From NCBI GenBank assembly GCA_028710275.1, contig JAQTUL010000001.1, positions 921 through 64,920 on the forward strand: a stretch of 64,000 nucleotides of DNA, in the 5' to 3' direction. Source of the stretch: Candidatus Colwellbacteria bacterium (GTDB lineage: Bacteria > Patescibacteriota > Minisyncoccia > UBA6257 > Colwellbacteraceae). Below are positions 8,043-57,414 of this stretch, one piece after another. The notes beneath the pieces are model-generated. The model saw only the letters and a program-made list of their open reading frames with translations. It did no database searches and was not told where the DNA came from. Position 1 is the stretch's first letter. Every line of letters begins with the position of its first letter. The translations under genes and the position numbers were made by a program.

Positions 8043-9134
8043 CTAAATATTAAATTTATTCAAAACATTCGCAATCGTAACATTTGATACCCCGTAATCT
8101 TTTCCTAATTGAGTTTTTGTTACATCTTCATTGTTATATCGGTCATATATCTCTTGTCGTTGTTCGTCAGTTAATTTATGATGACGAGTTTTAAAATCTG
8201 GAGGAATATACGTCTCGTCAATCCATGATGTATTTCTTACAACATTATTTATACATGCGCGTGAAACACCATATTTTTCCATCATATCCTTTTCTCTTAA
8301 TTCTCCCGAGCAATAATCTTCTCTGATTCTCTTTACTATCTCCTTGTTCAGTTTAGCAACAACTCTTTTAGTTTTCGTTGTCGGTTCAGATACGGTTTTA
8401 AATTTTTCAGATTTCTCACCGTACTGTATATTAGTTCGTTTTCGATGACAATACTGACACAGCATTCTACACTTATCGATCTCCTTCTGGATTCTTTCTG
8501 TGCTATAAGTAGATCCCGCCATATTACTTATCATATAACTCTTAGTCTCGACATCTATATGATCAAATTCATAAAATGAGAGAATAGTGTTATCGAATAC
8601 ATCGGTGCAGCCTTCCATTTGACATCCACCGATTTTTACCTTTACTTCATCGACATACTTTCTATTTCTCTCCTTTCTCTTTCGTTTACTCGCAAGTCTC
8701 TTATCAGTTTCATCGATATTATTATCTCGTTCTTCTCGCTCGATATCTCTTTGTGATCTTGTATGTCTCGCGTGACATTTTCCGCATATAGTTCTCACTT
8801 TATCAAGTTCGATAAGTAGACTTTCCATCTTGAGTATAGCCGTTACATTTTTATATTTCTCTTTCGGATCGATATGATCAAAATGTATATGACTCATATC
8901 ATCGTCACCACATAGTTCACATTTATCTTTATGACTTTCAACAACATCTTTGGCTCTATTAGCTGTTGTTTTATAGCCCAGTCTCTGTACACGACAATCA
9001 AGACACATTTTAGTTTCTTGACCATTTCTCAAGTCTGCAAACTGTGATAGATTTTTTTCATCTTCACATATGTAACAGGTCTTGACTAATTCAATATAAA
9101 TCTCTTCGTCCGACTCTACTAAAGGGTTTGCCAT
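8043..9134 (-). CDS. HNH-type endonuclease-like protein with two Cys/His nuclease-like motifs and a C-terminal helix-turn-helix
   Basis: CELCGDDDMSHIHFDHIDPKEKYKN and GGCQMEGCTDVFDNTILSFYEFDHIDVE (HNH-like C..C...H.DHI). C-terminal LGKDYGVSNVTIANVLNKF is HTH-like. Confidence 0.4.
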   Translation of the reverse strand: MANPLVESDEEIYIELVKTCYICEDEKNLSQFADLRNGQETKMCLDCRVQRLGYKTTANRAKDVVESHKDKCELCGDDDMSHIHFDHIDPKEKYKNVTAILKMESLLIELDKVRTICGKCHARHTRSQRDIEREERDNNIDETDKRLASKRKRKERNRKYVDEVKVKIGGCQMEGCTDVFDNTILSFYEFDHIDVETKSYMISNMAGSTYSTERIQKEIDKCRMLCQYCHRKRTNIQYGEKSEKFKTVSEPTTKTKRVVAKLNKEIVKRIREDYCSGELREKDMMEKYGVSRACINNVVRNTSWIDETYIPPDFKTRHHKLTDEQRQEIYDRYNNEDVTKTQLGKDYGVSNVTIANVLNKFNI

Positions 9135-9250: not shown

Positions 9251-10069
9251 ATGTCATTTAGAAAAAATCACTGTCGAGATGACTCGATAAACTCTTCCGA
9301 TTCATGTAACTCTTCTGGTTCGGACTCGGACTCATCTTGTAACATTCGTAAATGTAAACCGCAACATTGTAATATACAGATAATTAACCAAGGGTGGTGT
9401 CCTCAAGGAAATTCAATTACGGGTGCTACTGGCCCTCAAGGAAATTCAATTACGGGTGCTACTGGACCTCAAGGAAATTCAATTACGGGTGCTACTGGAC
9501 CTCAAGGAAATTCAATTACGGGTGCTACTGGACCTCAAGGAAATTCAATTACGGGTGCTACTGGTCCTCAAGGCGATTCAATTACGGGTGCTACTGGTCC
9601 TCAAGGAAATTCAATTACGGGTCCTCAAGGAAATTCAATTACTGGTGCTACCGGCCCGTCTAATGTTCTTGGATATGGATACGTATATAATCTCACATCT
9701 ACTACAGTAGCGATCGAATCACCAATAAATTTTGATACCAACGGGCCTCTCCTTGGAATTTCTCATACACCATCTTCACCTTCGATTATATTTTCCGAAT
9801 CGGGAGTATATTCAATTATATTTTCTGTATCAGGAACTCAACCTAATCAGTTTGCAATATTTATAAATGGTGTTCCTGATGGTTCGACAATTTACGGATC
9901 GGGAGCGGGAACACAACAAAATACTGGTCCATCAATAATTTTAATAACTTCAGGTGACGTATTGACTCTGGTAAATCATAGTTCAGCTTCAGCTGTAACA
10001 CTGGATTCTGTGATTGGTGGTACACAAGCAAACGTAAATGCCTCTATACAGATAGTGAGAATCGCATAA
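9251..10069 (+). CDS. Tandem 11-aa repeat protein ([11 protein letters not shown] x~10) with C-terminal C1q/TNF/BclA-like beta-sandwich tail; putative surface fibre
   Basis: 33-nt in-frame repeats. The repeat is not strict G-X-Y collagen. C-terminus [36 protein letters not shown]...[11 protein letters not shown] resembles C1q/BclA C-terminal domains. Confidence 0.5.
9405..9655 (+). repeat. 33-nt tandem coding repeat (~7.5 copies)
   Basis: tcaattacgggtgctactgg(a/c)cctcaaggaaat repeated. Confidence 0.8.
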
Positions 10070-22061: not shown

Positions 22062-23894
22062 CTAATTTGTAATTGGAATCCCGGACATCGAACTAGTCGA
22101 TGGATCGACACTCGTATCCTCCTCAACGAAAATGAATTCGGGTGGAGTAGTGTCATGAGTAACTTTCTTCCCTCTCTGTAGACCCGGAGGTCTTTCAGGT
22201 GAGGACTTTGCTAAGGAGCAGATATGAAGGGACGCATTAGTATCTCTATTCCAGTACTGGTTACAGGTTGTGCACCTTAACAAGCCATGGACTAGTGATT
22301 GATTCCCTCTTCTCCACGGACGAGGACATTCTCGCCACATAAACTTTTTATTCTCTCCTTCACACTGATAACAGGTACAAGAGGTTTTATGTTCATCTAC
22401 TAAATAGACCTTGTAACCGTTCTTTCTAAAGATGTCTCTTATTCCCTTTCCAAGAGTTGGTTCTTTCCACTTCATCTGTCTTTTCTGTTCCCAATCACCT
22501 ATCGCTATCACCGCTTCAGTTGGACCTCCGAACACGTTCTTAAAGTTACGAATCATCTTACTTTCCGATTTCTGTCTTAGAATATGGCCTCTCCACTTTA
22601 TGGATCTGAATACCTCTTTCTGGTACACAGATCTACACTCCTCTTCAACTTCTCTCTTCTTAGATACGTATTCCATGAACTCTGTGTAGTCTGATGAAGT
22701 TGAACGGTAATGAGAGAGTTCCTCCTCTATACTCTTTACTGGTTCTCTTTGTCTATCCAATTTGTGTCGGTGGGCTCTCTTACAGCACTCCCTCTTTCTC
22801 TGAACAGCCGAGTATCGGAATCTCTTCTCTCCATCGGTACAGTGAATAAGATCCTCCTTCCCAGGATCGATACCAACTATAGAGGTGTAGAGATCCCTTG
22901 TAGAGAGAAATTCAGGTCCAGTAATATAAGGCTCAACGATATCATGAGTCTTTTCATCTAAACTCCCCTTGTGAAGAAGAATCGAGACTCCCTTACCATC
23001 TGTTTTTATCATTAGGAACTCATACCCGACTCTTTCGTATCTCTTAGTTTGTGGAAGAGAGTGAATAGAGAAGTATTCAGTCCATGTATCTCTAAAGGGT
23101 ATTTTATTCTTTCCACTCTTATTGTTACCAGTAATTCTTTGTAAACACTCACCATCGAGAGTGATGTATGCAGGGATTAGAGACCTTCGTAGAGGAAAGA
23201 TATTTAATCCGAGACTAATTGCGGGTGAAAGATACATCCATGGATTACATTTAACATCGTAGCGCACTGTACCATTCTTCAATTCTCTATTACCGTAAAG
23301 AAGAGTCTTTATCCGTCCTATAAAATCTGTGTATTCATCTCCACTCTTAAGAGTATTCTCTAATACGTCTTTCTTAACAGCTTCTAGTTTTTTATTAAGA
23401 ACTTTTCTTTCGTCTCCAGAAACCAATTTCAATCCGAAGCGACGGTCGATGTATTTTCTTAATTTATCTATAAATGAGGTCTTGATAAGGTTCTCGTAAT
23501 TTACTATCATATCCTCCGCTTCGTACTTGAGGAAGTTACCAATGTGTTCGCATACGGGAATTTCTATTCTTCCTTCTGGATCGTAATGTTTGGTGTAGTA
23601 GTCTCTCACTTCTAGACACAATTCCTCATTCTTCTCAGATAGAGTACCTCTCTTTTTTGGGGTGTAGAAGAGCTTAAAACAGACATTGATAAAGTTTGTG
23701 TTTAATTCCGGAAGAACAAAGTTGTTAGTCTCCAAGTAGAGACAATACGCTTTTATGAAAGCGTATGTGTTATACACTATTCGGTTTATCTCTAGAACTT
23801 TTAATTGGATGTCATCTACCACTGAAGAATCTTTTCTAACAATAGAATTTAGTCCTATTTTAAAGGACTTGTAAGTGTATTTCTTTCCTCTCAT
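22062..23894 (-). CDS. TnpB/Fanzor-like RuvC-fold nuclease (OMEGA-family, eukaryotic/viral Fanzor2-type candidate)
   Basis: RuvC-I IVGIDPGKEDL. RuvC-II-like AVIAIGDWEQ. C-terminal zinc finger plus RuvC-III CTCYQCEGENKKF...LRCTTCNQYWNRDTNASLHI, matching the CxxC...CxxC...DRDxNAAxNI consensus. 610 aa. Confidence 0.6.
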   Translation of the reverse strand: MRGKKYTYKSFKIGLNSIVRKDSSVVDDIQLKVLEINRIVYNTYAFIKAYCLYLETNNFVLPELNTNFINVCFKLFYTPKKRGTLSEKNEELCLEVRDYYTKHYDPEGRIEIPVCEHIGNFLKYEAEDMIVNYENLIKTSFIDKLRKYIDRRFGLKLVSGDERKVLNKKLEAVKKDVLENTLKSGDEYTDFIGRIKTLLYGNRELKNGTVRYDVKCNPWMYLSPAISLGLNIFPLRRSLIPAYITLDGECLQRITGNNKSGKNKIPFRDTWTEYFSIHSLPQTKRYERVGYEFLMIKTDGKGVSILLHKGSLDEKTHDIVEPYITGPEFLSTRDLYTSIVGIDPGKEDLIHCTDGEKRFRYSAVQRKRECCKRAHRHKLDRQREPVKSIEEELSHYRSTSSDYTEFMEYVSKKREVEEECRSVYQKEVFRSIKWRGHILRQKSESKMIRNFKNVFGGPTEAVIAIGDWEQKRQMKWKEPTLGKGIRDIFRKNGYKVYLVDEHKTSCTCYQCEGENKKFMWRECPRPWRRGNQSLVHGLLRCTTCNQYWNRDTNASLHICSLAKSSPERPPGLQRGKKVTHDTTPPEFIFVEEDTSVDPSTSSMSGIPITN

Positions 23895-48696: not shown

Positions 48697-51576
48697 TTAT
48701 TCTAGATAGTGAATGGTCAGAGGTCCTTCTCTTCCAATACGATTCGCTCGGCCAGTAAGCTGAATCTCCATCAACGGATCCATCTGATGGTAGTAGATGA
48801 TGTGACCAGTCATCTGAAGATTGATTCCTGCACCATTGAACTTCGCGTTCAGGAAGATGGTATCAACATCTCCTGTCTGATACATTGCCAACTTCTTCTC
48901 TCTTGCCTCTCGAGTACCTTTGATCTCCACATACTCTGTGTTGTTATCTTTGAACGAATCTTTGATGAGATCGAATGACTCGTCGTGTGCCGAGAAGACG
49001 ATGAACTTTTCACCGGGATGGTCCTCGATGATCTTGATGATAGTCTCCGGTTTGCTCAACACAATTTTGTTTTTCTTTTTCTTTACCTCTACGAAACTAT
49101 CGTCACCCTCTTCATCCGAATCATCGAATACTATCGGAGCGGGTGATTTTTTGTCCGTCACCGAGATCAGAGCACCAACCTTTACCTCTGATCGACACAT
49201 ATGACATGTAGGATTGATCTTCAACCAGTCAGTCACACACTTGAGACATACAATATTCTGACAACAGGGAAGTAGAACAGGGTTATTAAGAGTACACGAA
49301 CAGATGCTACAGTCGTCTTCAAGAATCTTGGCGAATCTCATCTTAATTAGTGCGAGCTTCTCTTTGATCTCGATTACTCTATCAACCCACATCTTGTGTC
49401 GTTCCTTATGAGCAGCATCCTTGTTCCTCAATGGGTAGTGCTCTTCAACCTTCATCTCTGCTCGCTCTAGTTCCTCCTTCTTATTGGCTGTCACAACCTC
49501 GATCAGATTTCTCGGACCATCCTCTCCTCCAAGATGTTTGATCGCTCCATCAATATGTCCCGCTGCGATCATTGCGACGACCTCCTCTCCGACCATGTCA
49601 CCAACCACTTCGAGAACTCCTGGTTGAATACATTTGTGAGTGATAACCTTTGTTTGTGGCATTGAGAACGATGCTTTGACGAAATCATCTTCATTCTTCA
49701 CGAGCATATATCCAAATGTGATTGGAGAGATAGTACTGAAGATCGTCTTGATGAAGTGTTGTTTTCTTCCTCTTATAGAACTCAAGTTAGGAAATGTGGC
49801 TGTAACAAACCAGTAGAATCCAGCGTACACACTATTCATCGATGGAATGTGTGTGGAAGCAGCCTCGTCAAACACAAATCTCTTCCATGAGAACTGTACA
49901 AACTGCTCCACGAATTTGTTGTACATCTTGTCCGAACAGAGAATGATGTGGTAGTCGTTAGGATCGATCTCCATGTGAGCCTTCTTGGTCACTGTGTGAC
50001 AAGAGATTTTCTTCGCTCGTCCAATCTCTTTTTCCCATTGACCGATGATCGAATTGGATGCAACGATCAGAGTACAGTCCAATCTCTCCTTCTTCACCCG
50101 TCGTCGAGTAATATAAGTTGAAGATGGACCGAATGCTTCGATCTCTTCATACTCGAATGGTGTATCCATATCCCATTCCATTTTATCACGATCTATTACA
50201 GCCACCATACTCATTGTGTTGTGTGTCACTGTGAAATCACCCAGAAGAAATCTTCTGTTACCAGTAATAGAAAATCCATAGTAATCATCAACTTCCAATT
50301 TCTCGACAATGATACTTCCGCAGAGCTGATCCTTGTTCGGATTTGAAACCGCTTTCTTTCGTTCGAGAAGAACTGGTATCTCTTCAATACCTTTTCCGGA
50401 GAAACTCATAAGATTATACTCACCAGTTCTTTTTTCTCCCTTATACATACACCATTTATCCACCTTCTTGATTGTACATCTGAATCCCAGAGATCGACAA
50501 AGATATACAATATCATTTGCGAGAACTGTATTTTTCTGTGCGATTTCGTAACATCCACGGGAATAGTATCCATCCGAATCGATAAGACCGGCGAGAAGAC
50601 GAAGACGATTTTCTCTTGAGTTGATCTTATAATCTTCGGGAATGTGTTTGTTGTCCATCAGCTTACGATCAGTCAGAAAGTTTCTCACACGATTAGATCG
50701 TTTCAATCCTTTGTTCTCTTTCGGAATGAGTCTGTAATGTATATCGTAAACTCTCAAATCAAAATCGGGAAATGCATTGAATAAATATTCTACAATTTCT
50801 TTATCATCCGTAGTTATAGATTGGTCTTGTGAATCTCCATCACCCAACCACATTCCCAAAAAGTAAGGATCGATTTCAACTTTCTTTTCAGGGAACTCGA
50901 CTCCGACTCTATATCCTTTCAGATGTTGCTGAATGGTTTTCGGAAGTGTGAGATACTTTTTTACTTCCACATCGACATATGGGTTGATGTATCCTAATGA
51001 TTCAAGAAACTTATCAGCCTCATTTTGGGCATCTTCGATTGAATAGTTACAATACGAGAATGTTTTCGATTTGAACTTCAGTTCTTCTGGTACGAAATAA
51101 TGAGCTTGCACTCGTCTCGATCCAGCCATTGTTACTTTCACTCCGGACATTTTCAATGAGAGAATATGAGATTCATTCACTGTATAATCCTCACCACCGT
51201 TGGTCTGCTTGATCTTATACATTGTTTCTTGTCCTCTCGCGAGTGAAAGAACTTCTCTTGAAGTAGAATCGTCACCCATCAACAAGTCTCCAACAACTAC
51301 ATCCTGAACCATTTTTATTTTACCGTCAAACATGAGTATGGGAGTGTCAAATTTATGGCACTTACCGTATCCTGGAATGTCCCCGAACACTCCCATGGTC
51401 ATTTCTATGTATCGTCCTCCGAGATCTCTCTTCTTCTCTCGCTCAATCTTCTCGAGATCAAGAACCGACACAACCTGATGAGGGAAGAGTTTGATTGTCA
51501 AAGATGATGCGATATCTCCTCGCTCCTCTTTGCGGCCGTCATCGATCGGTTCTCCTTTGCGTTCTTCGAGATCCAT
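48697..51576 (-). CDS. SNF2-family helicase with embedded RING finger (Rad5/Rad16/HLTF-like), interrupted by an intein in the Walker A motif
   Basis: Exteins: LFPHQ...GDIPGYGK|[intein]|TMSMV. FDEAAS (DExx). RING CSICSCTLNNPVLLPCCQNIVCLKCVTDWLKINPTCHMCR. Helicase-C motif QLTGRANRIGREGP. Confidence 0.7.
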   Translation of the reverse strand: MDLEERKGEPIDDGRKEERGDIASSLTIKLFPHQVVSVLDLEKIEREKKRDLGGRYIEMTMGVFGDIPGYGKCHKFDTPILMFDGKIKMVQDVVVGDLLMGDDSTSREVLSLARGQETMYKIKQTNGGEDYTVNESHILSLKMSGVKVTMAGSRRVQAHYFVPEELKFKSKTFSYCNYSIEDAQNEADKFLESLGYINPYVDVEVKKYLTLPKTIQQHLKGYRVGVEFPEKKVEIDPYFLGMWLGDGDSQDQSITTDDKEIVEYLFNAFPDFDLRVYDIHYRLIPKENKGLKRSNRVRNFLTDRKLMDNKHIPEDYKINSRENRLRLLAGLIDSDGYYSRGCYEIAQKNTVLANDIVYLCRSLGFRCTIKKVDKWCMYKGEKRTGEYNLMSFSGKGIEEIPVLLERKKAVSNPNKDQLCGSIIVEKLEVDDYYGFSITGNRRFLLGDFTVTHNTMSMVAVIDRDKMEWDMDTPFEYEEIEAFGPSSTYITRRRVKKERLDCTLIVASNSIIGQWEKEIGRAKKISCHTVTKKAHMEIDPNDYHIILCSDKMYNKFVEQFVQFSWKRFVFDEAASTHIPSMNSVYAGFYWFVTATFPNLSSIRGRKQHFIKTIFSTISPITFGYMLVKNEDDFVKASFSMPQTKVITHKCIQPGVLEVVGDMVGEEVVAMIAAGHIDGAIKHLGGEDGPRNLIEVVTANKKEELERAEMKVEEHYPLRNKDAAHKERHKMWVDRVIEIKEKLALIKMRFAKILEDDCSICSCTLNNPVLLPCCQNIVCLKCVTDWLKINPTCHMCRSEVKVGALISVTDKKSPAPIVFDDSDEEGDDSFVEVKKKKNKIVLSKPETIIKIIEDHPGEKFIVFSAHDESFDLIKDSFKDNNTEYVEIKGTREAREKKLAMYQTGDVDTIFLNAKFNGAGINLQMTGHIIYYHQMDPLMEIQLTGRANRIGREGPLTIHYLE
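50218..51360 (-). mobile_element. Intein (381 aa) with two LAGLIDADG homing-endonuclease motifs, inserted in-frame between GYGK and T of the P-loop
   Basis: Starts CHKFDTPILMFDG (Hint block A, Cys1; codon tgc at 51358-51360). LAGLIDADG motifs FLGMWLGDGDS and RLLAGLIDSDGYY. Ends FTVTHN|T (His-Asn then Thr; codons verified at 50215-50223). Confidence 0.75.
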
Positions 51577-54075: not shown

Positions 54076-57000
54076 TTATTTCTCGTACTCCATAAGTTTT
54101 TTCTCCTTAAACCAATCTTCCATAGCATCACACATATCCTTTTTTCCTGCCTTTACCTGCCAGTAATACACATTTTTCAATCTGTCATCAGTCATCTCCT
54201 TCAACGTTTTCTTTTTGAATTCGCTACCTCTCTTAATAATCTCATCAATAAACTTATTCCTATCTTTCATCACTACTTCAATTGGTGGTTTTATATTTAG
54301 ACTTTTCTTATTCAGATCATTGATAATATCGATTATACGTTCTTTGGGAACCATTTCACGACAGATTGGTCCTCTCCATCTCTTACGTTTGTCGGTCTTG
54401 TCTTTTTCTACTTTCATGATCTGGAATTTAAACTTCTTCTTTGGATCTTTGATAATTCGTCCGTAGTATCCGTAAGGATTTAGTTCAAGAGTTCCCTTCT
54501 CCTCTATTTTAACATCTTCAATCTCTTCACTTACTTTATCATCACATTCAACCCAATCGTCCATACTCTTACCTTTAGTTGGAAGACAACGAAGTCTACC
54601 TTCAGTATCGTGTAGAAGAGTAGAGACAGTTTTATTACTGACATCAATAATATAGTTTTTATAATGATCGACAATGATTGTTCGAATCTCCTCTCCAGTT
54701 TTCTTCTCCAATTTATTACCTACAACAGACATTTCAATAAAAAGTTCTTGAAGACTTGGAACTAAAGAGACAATCTGATCGATGATAACTTTTTTATCAT
54801 CGGCTTCCGTATAATTTTCAATAAGGTACACCTTATCCTCCACGATATACCGATACTGTGCGAGTTTAATCATATCCTCGAAGTTGTAGTATGTTTTAAC
54901 ATTGGGATGTTCTGCGTACCGGGCTAGAAGAAAAGAGTCGGGTAGAGTAATATCGTCGACCAGAAAGTAGAGATTGTGATCCTCTCTCATATATGAAGGC
55001 ATACCGTATTTGTTGATAATGAGAATAGACTTATCTATAATTTTCTTTAATGCTCTCACAATAACCATTGTCGATGTCTCTGAAAATTCAAGTAGCATCT
55101 CACCGAGATCATAAGCAAACTTTTTACGGAACATCTGTTTAATAATATTAGTTATACTCTCTATCTCACTCTCAGCATAAAAGAGATTGTACGTATCATC
55201 AATCAGATCGGGATTTGCAATAGTCTTCTTTGAGATATGTGAACAAGTGTACTTACACTTCATATAATCACACTCTTTACTTCCATCTTTATCGGTTGGA
55301 AGGTTGTTTCGTTCCCAGTTCAACGCGCAATTGACAGCCTCCTCTTTACAGACACGTTCTATCTGTTTCATTTTAAAGTCCTTGTCCTCTGATGTTTTGT
55401 ACATAATATAGTTGATAGATTCAACTCCACGATTGGGAATAGATGCGTGTCGAAAAATCTTAACACTTCTCTCATCGGGTTTAAGATCTTCGTGAGAGAA
55501 GGCTCGAATACCGCGACCGATAGCTTGTTCTGTTTCAGGATTATTCCAGTGAGGAGTCTGGATATGGATTTGTCTTACATTTCTTAAACTTTTACCCTCA
55601 CCAATAACCTGACTTCCGATAATAACCTGAATATATTGTCCATATCGATTTCTCGGATCGTTAAAAACCTTATCAACCACACGATCGATTTCAGCTGCAG
55701 AAACAGTTTCTCCTGTGATAAGAGAGAACCGAGGTTTCTTTCGGGAATCTAATTTTTTCTTGGTCTTTTTTGGAATTTCTACATCTTCAGACTTCTTATA
55801 CTTTTTCATAGTCTTCTTATCGATCTTTGGCGGTTTGGGTTCATCATCGTCAATATCCTCGTCGGTCTCCTCTTCGATATCACTCATATCACTGTCACTC
55901 TTTTCGTCATCAGAGACATCGTACTCATCATCTCGATCCATATCAATATGTCCTCTTGTTCTTTCAAAACCAACAAGTTTAAGAAGTTCAGCAAAGAGTA
56001 TACCACCGGAACCTTGAACATATTTATTATACACGAAGATGTTCTCATTTGGGTGGTCAAGAATCTCCTTTATCGTAGACGCGTAGATAGACGAATATTT
56101 AGAGATATTCTTAATTATCTGATAGGGTGTTGCTTTTCCGTTTGAAGTTAGTTCGTTACGAAGATCTTTGGACATAATATATTCACTTCCAACTTCGTTA
56201 AAATATTCTCCAAACCCTGTAGACTCCTTCTTTCCTCCGTCCTTTGTCTTTCCTGAAGAGCTACCCCCCGAACTCCCATCAGGAAAAACAAAGAGCGATG
56301 CCTGTCGAGATTTCGAATAGAGACCCTGACTTTTCGTCTCATCTTCTACCTCCTCAATATCATCAACATCACCTTCTTTATCACCTGTATCTTTATTGTA
56401 TGCGGTAACATAAGCCTTGGTTTGAAAATCACTCATCTCTGAAGGATAAATTTTAATCTTCTCCATTTTACCATAAAGCTCACCCTTGAATACTTTTGTC
56501 ACACCACCCTCCATCGATCGAATATACCCGACACGTCCTCGAATAGCCTCTTTAAGCTCGTGAACATTTTCAAGTGTGTTATTCTCTTTATCATCGGAAA
56601 AGAACTTCTTCATAAACTCCTTTCCAGTTGGAAGCTGTTTGTCCTCGGGGAGAATAAGATTCATTACGCTACCAAACTCCTCTGGTCTATCTCTCATAGG
56701 AGTCGCAGAAAGAAGTACAATCTTTCTGTTATCGATGTTGTGAAGGAATCGATGGATACTATCGTAAATATTCACTGACGTCTTACCCTTCTTTTTCTTA
56801 GGTTGAATTCGAATGTTATGTACTTCATCGATAATGATCACGCGATTCGAATAGACTTTATTGATATACTTCTCTGAGTATTTCGAAACCCTTTCAGCAA
56901 AGGTTTCGAATGTCTGAATATCATACTCTTTATTGATAAGACGGTTCATACGCAGAATCTTCTCTCCCTTTGTAAGATTATCATAGTTATCGGGGATAAA

Positions 57001-57414
57001 CTTACCCGATGTACATTTAAAGGCTAGCTCCTGTACGAAATTTCTTTTCAGCGGAGGTCCTTTCATAAGACACAATGTTGGTTTCAAAGACGGATTGATT
57101 TTACGAGACTCTTCGGCTATGGTAATTGCTGTACAAGTTTTCCCACTACCGAGTCCGTCAAATAAGAGTATTTCATCATTTAACGTGTTAGGTGAGAGAA
57201 ATCGTGCGCTGGTAAGTTGATTCTTCAGAGGCATACCTGGCTTGTCCGGTTTTTTTTCCGAAGGTCCTAATTTGTTCGTGTAGAACTCCTTCTTTCGGTA
57301 AAATGAACTTTCTGGTTCATCGTCGTATATGTTAAACAGGTCCTCCTCATATTTTTTGCCAAAGTGTGTATATCCCGGGAGAAAATCTTCCAGCTTGAGT
57401 TGTAGATCACCCAT
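54076..57414 (-). CDS. D6/D11-type DExH helicase (poxvirus early transcription factor small-subunit-like, NCLDV core gene)
   Basis: Walker A LFDGLGSGKTCTAI. Motif II VIIIDEVHNIR. Motif III LLSATPM. Helicase C QIHIQTPHWNNPETEQAIGRGIR. Acidic insert. Confidence 0.8.
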   Translation of the reverse strand: MGDLQLKLEDFLPGYTHFGKKYEEDLFNIYDDEPESSFYRKKEFYTNKLGPSEKKPDKPGMPLKNQLTSARFLSPNTLNDEILLFDGLGSGKTCTAITIAEESRKINPSLKPTLCLMKGPPLKRNFVQELAFKCTSGKFIPDNYDNLTKGEKILRMNRLINKEYDIQTFETFAERVSKYSEKYINKVYSNRVIIIDEVHNIRIQPKKKKGKTSVNIYDSIHRFLHNIDNRKIVLLSATPMRDRPEEFGSVMNLILPEDKQLPTGKEFMKKFFSDDKENNTLENVHELKEAIRGRVGYIRSMEGGVTKVFKGELYGKMEKIKIYPSEMSDFQTKAYVTAYNKDTGDKEGDVDDIEEVEDETKSQGLYSKSRQASLFVFPDGSSGGSSSGKTKDGGKKESTGFGEYFNEVGSEYIMSKDLRNELTSNGKATPYQIIKNISKYSSIYASTIKEILDHPNENIFVYNKYVQGSGGILFAELLKLVGFERTRGHIDMDRDDEYDVSDDEKSDSDMSDIEEETDEDIDDDEPKPPKIDKKTMKKYKKSEDVEIPKKTKKKLDSRKKPRFSLITGETVSAAEIDRVVDKVFNDPRNRYGQYIQVIIGSQVIGEGKSLRNVRQIHIQTPHWNNPETEQAIGRGIRAFSHEDLKPDERSVKIFRHASIPNRGVESINYIMYKTSEDKDFKMKQIERVCKEEAVNCALNWERNNLPTDKDGSKECDYMKCKYTCSHISKKTIANPDLIDDTYNLFYAESEIESITNIIKQMFRKKFAYDLGEMLLEFSETSTMVIVRALKKIIDKSILIINKYGMPSYMREDHNLYFLVDDITLPDSFLLARYAEHPNVKTYYNFEDMIKLAQYRYIVEDKVYLIENYTEADDKKVIIDQIVSLVPSLQELFIEMSVVGNKLEKKTGEEIRTIIVDHYKNYIIDVSNKTVSTLLHDTEGRLRCLPTKGKSMDDWVECDDKVSEEIEDVKIEEKGTLELNPYGYYGRIIKDPKKKFKFQIMKVEKDKTDKRKRWRGPICREMVPKERIIDIINDLNKKSLNIKPPIEVVMKDRNKFIDEIIKRGSEFKKKTLKEMTDDRLKNVYYWQVKAGKKDMCDAMEDWFKEKKLMEYEK

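Follow-up and report, generated by a model that had tools for sequence, protein, structure and literature searches.

An insertion in the P-loop of a SNF2-RING helicase

What is the 381-residue element that splits the ATP-binding loop of a SNF2-type helicase in this 64,000-nucleotide stretch of DNA (the whole of which we call the window), and is it likely to splice and to move? The answer that we favor, with a probability of roughly 0.85, is that the element is a class-1 intein of the PI-SceI type, inserted at GYGK|T (the bar marks the insertion point) in the Walker A motif of a giant-virus SNF2-RING helicase; that it is predicted to splice and to home; and that it belongs to an intein family specialised on P-loops.

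The insert comprises residues 73-453 of the predicted precursor and lies between Lys72 and Thr454. It begins CHKFDTPILMFDG and finishes FTVTHN, and the flanking residues read GDIPGYGK on the amino-terminal side and TMSMVAV on the carboxy-terminal side. With the Cys1 codon at 51358..51360 and the Asn381 codon at 50218..50220, the insert is exactly 381 amino acids long. A preliminary description, made from the sequence alone, had placed an element of this length at 50218-51360 between the Lys and Thr of the Walker A motif, beginning with Cys and ending in His-Asn followed by Thr, and these boundaries prove exact.

Homologs without the intein show how clean the insertion is. A search with the spliced exteins recovered 66 homologs (340-756 amino acids), all of which lack the insertion. 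The closest (88% identical) is 578 amino acids long, which is precisely the spliced length of the window helicase. In an alignment of 14 sequences (A1), the 381 residues appear as a single gap in the other 13, between the invariant G71-K72 and a Thr or Ser. The comparison with intein-free homologs that the preliminary description had proposed thus gives one clean gap; homologs carrying the same 381 residues without splicing (Hint) motifs, which it had named as a case that would speak against an intein, do not occur among the 66, and the insert itself matches Hom_end_hint. The P-loop is likewise uninterrupted (G-x-G-K-T/S) at all 80 further orthologous loci examined in IMG/VR, many of which are named as giant-virus metagenome-assembled genomes (GVMAG). 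One IMG/VR locus with a longer match (L112) was considered as a possible occupied site and rejected: its extra length is a low-complexity insertion elsewhere, and its P-loop is intact.

The host protein has the SNF2-RING-Helicase_C domain order of Rad5, HLTF and SHPRH. Once spliced in silico, it matches the Pfam families SNF2-rel_dom (2.8e-8, above the cut-off), Helicase_C (4e-9) and RING (3e-5, sub-threshold), and the C-extein carries DEAA (motif II), TAT (motif III), the RING, the Helicase_C lobe and QxxGRxxRxGR (motif VI). The N-extein contributes only about 60 amino acids ahead of motif I, and no HIRAN domain is matched in the window helicase by Pfam at E<=0.1. The earlier comparison with Rad5 and HLTF is therefore borne out for the architecture and not for the HIRAN domain. 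Similarly, a RING is embedded between the helicase lobes as had been proposed, but it is an all-Cys variant and not C3HC4: it has eight Cys, and an invariant Gln773 takes the His position beside an extra invariant Cys772. Its score in the window protein is 23-24 bits against a Pfam cut-off of 27 bits; homologs exceed this threshold.

Class, fold and functional residues of the intein

The Pfam family Hom_end_hint covers the insert from its first to its last residue, over the whole profile (1-228 of 228) and with an E value of 1e-22. In addition, Hom_end (8e-9) and LAGLIDADG_3 (4e-5) are matched above their cut-offs. In a sequence search of the PDB, the best match is PI-SceI, the yeast VMA1 intein (1e-16), with fungal Prp8 inteins also among the best. 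Matches of this strength lie well outside what chance would give. The alignment with PI-SceI spans block A, both LAGLIDADG motifs, and blocks F and G.

A structural model built with AlphaFold2 from a 51-member family alignment is of high confidence (predicted local distance difference test score, pLDDT, 95.2; predicted template modeling score, pTM, 0.92), and the endonuclease domain is modeled at pLDDT >90 except for one loop. Compared with the PDB by Foldseek, the model retrieves PI-SceI chains as its top eleven matches (E 1e-27 to 1e-25, TM score up to 0.76), followed by TliVMA, PI-PfuI, Prp8 mini-inteins and I-DmoI. The matches to PI-SceI, PI-PfuI and I-DmoI support the fold of the endonuclease core.

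Residues C1, T6, G13, H65, G169, W171, K238, H239, A257, G258, D261, H380 and N381 are invariant in the 51-member alignment, and N62, D174 and D263 are each present in at least 90% of its members. The window intein keeps every invariant column as well as these three residues. Block B reads N62-E-S-H65 and fits the (T/N)xxH pattern; we take NxxH to be the form that block B has in the VMA1 intein. The catalytic aspartates are presumably Asp174 and Asp263, which we take to correspond to Asp218 and Asp326 of PI-SceI.

By its sequence features and modeled fold, then, the insert is best described as a class-1 intein: Cys1, block B, the terminal His-Asn followed by Thr+1, the Hint fold and the in-frame insertion are all present. 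A class 3 assignment was considered and ruled out. Cys1 is present, and block F (VDDYYGF) has an Asp and no Cys, the nearest being Cys347; this combination places the intein in class 1 and not in class 3. The same features describe the central region as a two-motif monomeric LAGLIDADG homing endonuclease of the PI-SceI type, with its residues intact and its activity predicted. The preliminary description had seen in the element a full-length intein with two LAGLIDADG motifs and an endonuclease that looks intact. Pfam, the PDB match, the model and the family alignment agree with the first point, and the comparison with 51 family members, in which all splicing and endonuclease residues are present, agrees with the second.

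Occupied and empty alleles

The distribution of the intein among orthologous helicases bears directly on its mobility. The ten closest host orthologs, which are 88-47% identical to the window helicase, are all empty. One of them comes from L001, a syntenic relative with kinesin, helicase, SNF2-RING and chitin synthase genes in this order. Occupied orthologs were found further away. An exhaustive HMMER scan with the full precursor, covering 1.84 billion cluster representatives, recovered from metagenomes at least 18 orthologs (744-990 amino acids) in which the same site is occupied in frame, in the form D-x-x-G-Y/S-G-K|C... The exteins of these orthologs are 27-40% identical to those of the window, while their inteins are 33-64% identical; in the extreme case (P0217), the intein is 64% and the extein 33% identical to the window copy. 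An intein that is more similar than its host is the opposite of what co-divergence predicts and indicates mobility. The G+C content at third codon positions also sets the intein (0.35) apart from both exteins (0.49-0.50).

The best full-length relative of the intein (P0226, 60% identical) resides in a different SNF2-type helicase, which has SAP domains and no RING, and the next-best full-length relatives are in Cdc48/NSF-type AAA ATPases. Sporadic presence of this kind, with close relatives empty and distant ones occupied, fits a homing cycle, and on these sequence comparisons the window intein is probably mobile.

The junction itself was compared with the closest empty allele (L003, 82% identical in nucleotides). 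Of the 12 bases closest to the junction, four are substituted, clustering within 6 nucleotides on either side of the insertion point, and the 21 bases upstream and 15 bases downstream are identical. Co-conversion or target immunity may have left these substitutions as a footprint, or they could be due to chance. The +2 residue is Met (ATG) in the window (junction codons 51355..51357 and 50212..50217); in the orthologs inspected it is mostly Leu, otherwise Phe, Tyr, Ile or Val, and Met in none.

A family of inteins with a preference for P-loops

When the intein alone was used as the query, 1,627 proteins were matched at E<=1e-3, the best 120 of which are 39-51% identical to it. The preference of this family for one kind of site is pronounced: in 177 of the 198 complete members (89%) the insertion point is GK|T/S of a Walker A motif. 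The preliminary description had called insertion at the most conserved catalytic residue the classic niche of inteins, which agrees with the literature, where GK|T has been named the 'classic' P-loop insertion point and about 70% of prokaryotic inteins are reported in ATP-binding proteins (PMC5050341). The residue that follows the intein at GK| sites across the family is Thr in 144 copies, Ser in 33 and Cys in 4. Hosts include helicases and ATPases of many kinds (DEAD/ResIII, SNF2, AAA/Cdc48, RFC-like clamp loader, DnaB, PIF1, UvrD and PhoH) as well as thymidine kinase, deoxynucleoside kinase, phosphomevalonate kinase, EF-Tu-type GTPases and a Marseillevirus packaging ATPase. IMG/VR yielded 46 loci of the family, and the contigs that carry them mostly bear names of giant-virus metagenome-assembled genomes. 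Taken together, these sequences point to a large family of giant-virus inteins specialised on GK|T/S that has spread among orthologous alleles of distant viruses as well as from one nucleoside triphosphatase to another, unrelated one.

The family is not confined to this exact position. One subgroup has its insertion point three residues closer to the amino terminus, at GKPG|TGKST. It includes P0144 (MDD4930878.1), in which an intein 41% identical to that of the window interrupts a 288-amino-acid extein that has no Pfam match and may be an A32-like packaging ATPase. P0144 lies on an 83,885-bp contig with the same genome label and accession series as the window proteins, and its intein is apparently a second family member in the same genome. 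A more distant relative (32% identical), at L044 (IMGVR GVMAG-S-1035423-6), lies in a protein resembling RNA polymerase subunit 2, in the context FLCPAE|C...HN|TPEGQS; the family therefore has members outside P-loops too.

How one lineage comes to occupy so many unrelated P-loops invites a further, tentative proposal, which we consider somewhat unlikely: the endonucleases of the family may recognise little beyond DNA coding for G-K-T/S, a short and degenerate sequence that all genes for P-loop nucleoside triphosphatases contain, so that they would home to a class of sites and the window copy would be one recent landing. If this were true, a single lineage could pass from one ATPase or GTPase gene to another, unrelated one, in the same virus or in a different one, and possibly into the eukaryotic hosts of these viruses; the presence of two inteins in tandem at one GK|T site, as in P0242 (described below), would be a by-product. 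The other P-loops of the window are empty, namely those of the helicase at 54076..57414 (near 57138) and of the kinesin (near 62273), and they match the reconstructed homing site (given below) at 17-21 of 42 bases. A tblastn search of the window in six frames with the intein found only the intein itself, the next matches having E >1.

The neighboring protein (54076..57414, minus strand) is a 1,112-amino-acid SNF2/ResIII helicase whose P-loop, DGLGSGK|TCTAIT, is empty. In L001 (L001:4622-8428), the ortholog of this helicase, which is 85% identical to it, carries a 156-amino-acid mini-intein (Pfam Intein_splicing) exactly at GK|T. We considered whether this mini-intein is a relative of the window intein and found it to be unrelated (BLASTP E 0.4, different Pfam family). 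The window and L001 are close relatives, and each thus carries, in one helicase P-loop, an intein that the other lacks, the two inteins being different ones. A second ortholog, P0242 (1,656 amino acids, 51% identical), has two inteins back to back in one Walker A motif: it reads GLGSGK, then a 381-amino-acid PI-SceI-type intein ending VHN, then a mini-intein that begins with Cys and ends GIITHN, and then TCTSIA. Here the first intein appears to have Cys1 of the mini-intein as its +1 residue.

Proposed splicing and homing

From the residues and distribution described above we infer splicing, endonuclease activity and an endonuclease target as follows. The gene would be translated as a 959-amino-acid precursor in which the Walker A loop is split, and because of this split the precursor is predicted to be unable to bind ATP and to lack ATPase activity. 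An N-S acyl shift at Cys1 would form a thioester, which the hydroxyl of Thr+1, the Walker A Thr itself, would attack; Asn381 would then cyclise with the help of His380 and free the 381-amino-acid intein. Finally, an O-N shift would rebuild the intact GYGKT loop, the product being a helicase of 578 amino acids. That the +1 nucleophile is the Walker A Thr may help to explain why any P-loop can host this intein family. In a co-infection, the freed intein would act as a site-specific endonuclease that cuts an allele without the intein across its GK|T codons; the occupied allele would then serve as the template for repair, by which the intein is copied in. The intein-free site reconstructed from the window, a candidate substrate of the predicted endonuclease, is GACATTCCAGGATACGGTAAG|ACAATGAGTATGGTGGCTGTA; the L003 allele is the alternative.

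A P-loop insertion guarantees an inactive precursor, and it is conceivable that the virus benefits from this, with splicing held back until a redox, metal or DNA-damage cue activates the helicase and ubiquitin ligase. Conditional splicing is documented for mycobacterial DnaB P-loop inteins and for the RecA intein (PMC6195587, PMC7360933, PMC11377839), selective retention of P-loop inteins has been argued for by Novikova et al. (PMC4760082), and the window intein has six further Cys besides Cys1. We nevertheless consider such a regulatory role improbable: the sequence bears no specific sign of regulation, close relatives manage without the intein, and the patchy distribution, the intact endonuclease and an intein identity above that of the host all fit a selfish element.

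The reading of the element as a splicing and mobile intein has to be weighed against several observations that count against it. Many of the allelic copies are shortened (253-347 amino acids against a family median of 377), which suggests that endonuclease decay is common at the SNF2-RING site. A comparison of the spliced coding sequence with L003 in 30-nucleotide windows gave no usable signal of a co-conversion tract, since similar clusters of differences occur elsewhere in the helicase gene. The nearest relatives of the intein are only 60-64% identical to it, too distant for purifying selection to be gauged, and Thr at +1 is less nucleophilic than Cys or Ser would be. A neighbour-joining tree, which places the allelic inteins in eight groups, carries no support values and is relied on for nearest-neighbour statements only. 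Finally, at 33 non-redundant occupied sites, the flanking DNA has nothing in common beyond the bases that the codons dictate (GGN AAR | ACN); as occupied sites are free to drift, this flank comparison speaks neither for nor against an endonuclease of relaxed specificity.

Some of these points would suit an intein that splices but no longer moves, its intact-looking endonuclease being inactive or its target lost, and which is retained since imprecise deletion would destroy the essential Walker A loop. Decay as the usual fate at this site, the lack of any relative above 64% identity that would record a recent transfer of the window copy, and the missing co-conversion signal all lean that way. 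The window copy itself, on the other hand, is of full length (381 amino acids) and keeps both catalytic Asp, Lys238 and all family-invariant columns; the confidence of the modeled endonuclease domain is high throughout except in the one loop; and its closest host relatives are empty, as expected of a recent or ongoing invasion. We therefore regard immobility as unlikely, though deserving of serious consideration, and a mobile, splicing intein as the better account.

Source genome and annotation

The window is labelled bacterial. Its proteins are identical to MDD4930577 and MDD4930580, from a contig of 152,625 bp that was deposited under the name 'MAG: Candidatus Colwellbacteria bacterium'. Its genes, in contrast to what a bacterium of the candidate phyla radiation would be expected to contain, include an XRN 5'-3' exonuclease, a PCIF1 domain, a kinesin motor, a chitin synthase, an asparagine synthase, several RING and C2H2 fingers, a TnpB-like protein and two SNF2-type helicases. 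Relatives of the window genes lie in giant-virus metagenome-assembled genomes; for the SNF2-RING gene, IMG/VR contains 142 confirmed relatives, many of which come from such genomes. On account of this gene content and of these relatives, the window very probably derives from a mis-binned giant virus (Nucleocytoviricota).

The NCBI record annotates only residues 793-959 of the helicase (48697..49200; MDD4930579.1, 167 amino acids, 'C-terminal helicase domain-containing protein'), so that the amino-terminal 792 residues, with the entire intein, are unannotated in the deposited record. A gene call that covers the last 167 residues alone might be taken to mean that the helicase is a pseudogene, that the insert is a permanent, non-splicing domain, or that the junction is an assembly chimera. 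Such explanations are close to excluded. The 2,880-nucleotide open reading frame runs without interruption and keeps all helicase, RING and intein motifs, an identical 959-amino-acid protein is found in an independent Logan assembly, and the in-frame intein recurs at the same position in the occupied orthologs (at least 18) described above. The short gene call is probably an annotation shortfall, linked perhaps to the bacterial label of the record. The features of the locus are collected in Table 1.

Table 1. Coordinates of the intein-containing helicase gene and its parts in the window, with the evidence for each
Feature	Position	Strand	Evidence
Precursor open reading frame, SNF2-RING helicase split by intein	48697..51576	-	959 amino acids + stop; SNF2-rel_dom, RING, Helicase_C and Hom_end_hint matches
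N-extein, precursor residues 1-72, ending in helicase motif I / Walker A GDIPGYGK	51361..51576	-	D66, G69, G71, K72 invariant among homologs
Intein, 381 amino acids, Cys1 to His380-Asn381, then Thr+1	50218..51360	-	Pfam, PDB match, alignment, model
N-terminal splicing (Hint) region, intein residues 1-102, blocks A (C1, T6, G13) and B (N62-x-x-H65)	51055..51360	-	Family conservation; beta-strand-rich model; aligns to PI-SceI 3-54
LAGLIDADG homing-endonuclease domain (activity predicted), intein residues 163-345	50326..50874	-	Hom_end, LAGLIDADG_3; aligns to PI-SceI 207-454; structural matches to PI-SceI, PI-PfuI, I-DmoI
LAGLIDADG motif 1, YFLGMWLGDGD, Asp174	50833..50865	-	Aligns to PI-SceI LGLWIGDG; G169, W171 invariant, D174 in at least 90%
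LAGLIDADG motif 2, LLAGLIDSDG, Asp263	50569..50598	-	LAGLIDSDG core as in PI-SceI; A257, G258, D261 invariant, D263 in at least 90%
C-terminal splicing region, intein residues 346-381, blocks F and G (VDDYYGFSITGNRRFLLGDFTVTHN)	50218..50325	-	Y360, G362, F363, V378, H380, N381 invariant
C-extein, precursor residues 454-959 + stop, from Thr+1 = Walker A Thr	48697..50217	-	Pfam and homolog alignment
RING-type zinc finger, precursor residues 756-794, eight Cys, between helicase lobes	49195..49311	-	zf-C3HC4_3 5.9e-5 (sub-threshold); Cys columns invariant; homologs with Pfam RING matches
Helicase_C lobe, precursor residues 842-948	48733..49053	-	Pfam 8e-9, above cut-off

Other genes in the window encode possible mobile-element proteins and unusual cargo. 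A 610-amino-acid open reading frame (22062..23894, minus strand) has a Cas12f1-like TNB domain (TnpB/Fanzor-like, Pfam 2.3e-7) and is a probable transposon-associated nuclease. A 363-amino-acid frame (8043..9134, minus strand) shows a weak match to HNH endonucleases (1.2e-4). In tblastn it also matches the LAGLIDADG region of the intein, although very weakly (E 1.8-3.6), and it possibly encodes a homing endonuclease that stands free of any intein. The unusual cargo consists of a 1,258-amino-acid protein with a kinesin motor domain (59973..63749, minus strand), which is conserved in L001, and a 272-amino-acid protein (9251..10069, plus strand) with a sub-threshold match to the BclA C-terminal domain.

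Comparison with known systems

The preliminary description had suggested that this host protein and site might constitute a new intein allele. This holds in part. We found no description of a giant-virus SNF2-RING intein allele in the literature searched, and a 2018 survey of eukaryotic and viral inteins lists only KOG1123, KOG2548 and KOG0947 as viral helicase hosts, none of them SNF2 (PMC5784728). Inteins in SNF2 P-loops as such have been published, however, and at least 18 orthologs are occupied in the metagenomes. The allele is thus new to the literature searched, yet common in metagenomic data, and is an ordinary example of a well-known kind of intein.

The value of the locus is mostly practical, in that it corrects the annotation of a giant-virus contig labelled as a bacterium of the candidate phyla radiation and adds a giant-virus SNF2-RING helicase, absent from the viral intein lists in the literature searched, to the known intein hosts. 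The hundreds of endonuclease-bearing inteins, 40-60% identical and located at one two-residue junction of many unrelated P-loop nucleoside triphosphatases in giant viruses, are a good natural system. They bear on how inteins reach non-allelic sites and on whether the P-loop bias reflects endonuclease preference, the chemistry of Thr or Ser at +1, or selection. In particular, the intact window copy and the empty alleles 80-88% identical to its host would form a convenient pair for studying Thr+1 splicing and endonuclease specificity.

Among the P-loop inteins described so far, the mycobacteriophage TerL1-a intein has the identical GK|T insertion point and likewise uses the Walker A Thr as its +1 nucleophile (PMC5050341), and the DnaB-b, MCM-a, RFC-a and RecA/RadA inteins are reported at analogous sites (PMC4760082, PMC5874633). 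These classic P-loop inteins differ from that of the window in host protein and in the domain of life of the host, and many of them are class 3 or mini-inteins, whereas the window intein is of class 1 and carries an endonuclease. Closer in host are the bacterial SNF2/HepA inteins (COG0553), of which Novikova et al. counted 15; SNF2/HepA is one of the top 15 intein hosts in bacteria (PMC4760082). Their hosts are SNF2-type superfamily 2 ATPases and at least some of them sit in the P-loop (PMC4760082, PMC2807308), but the hosts lack the RING of the window helicase. Class-3 inteins have been described in SNF2 P-loops and are reported for bacterial and phage SNF2, DnaB and TerL P-loops (PMC2807308); they have no amino-terminal nucleophile and use a block-F Cys, in contrast to the window intein, which has Cys1 and no block-F Cys.

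In eukaryotes, Gallot-Lavallee et al. (2023) found inteins in SWI/SNF, SNF2-chromodomain and SMARCAL1 helicases of Anaeramoeba, and reported that related inteins have spread between the P-loops of non-homologous proteins and that some clusters are shared with Nucleocytoviricota (PMC10710043). P-loop cluster 1 of Anaeramoeba is of class 3 and located in a eukaryotic nucleus, while the window family is of class 1 and, among the loci recovered from IMG/VR, occurs mostly on contigs named as giant-virus metagenome-assembled genomes.

The closest counterpart by fold is PI-SceI, which is the best PDB match in both sequence (1e-16) and structure (E 1e-27, TM 0.76). The two inteins share the Hom_end_hint and Hom_end pair, Cys1, an NxxH block B, the LAGLIDSDG core, DDYYG in block F and a VxHN end, and the PI-SceI host is also a P-loop ATPase. 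They differ in that the identity is only about 21% in the structural alignment; PI-SceI has 454 amino acids and the window intein 381; PI-SceI is followed by a +1 Cys at the VMA1-a site, the window intein by Thr in the Walker A motif of a superfamily 2 helicase; and one host is a yeast nuclear gene, the other that of a giant virus. A viral parallel is the intein in the packaging ATPase of Marseillevirus LCMAC101 (P0118): it is a full-length member of the same family, 42% identical to the window intein, and it likewise interrupts GK|T of a giant-virus P-loop ATPase, the difference being that its host is a packaging ATPase and not a SNF2-RING helicase.

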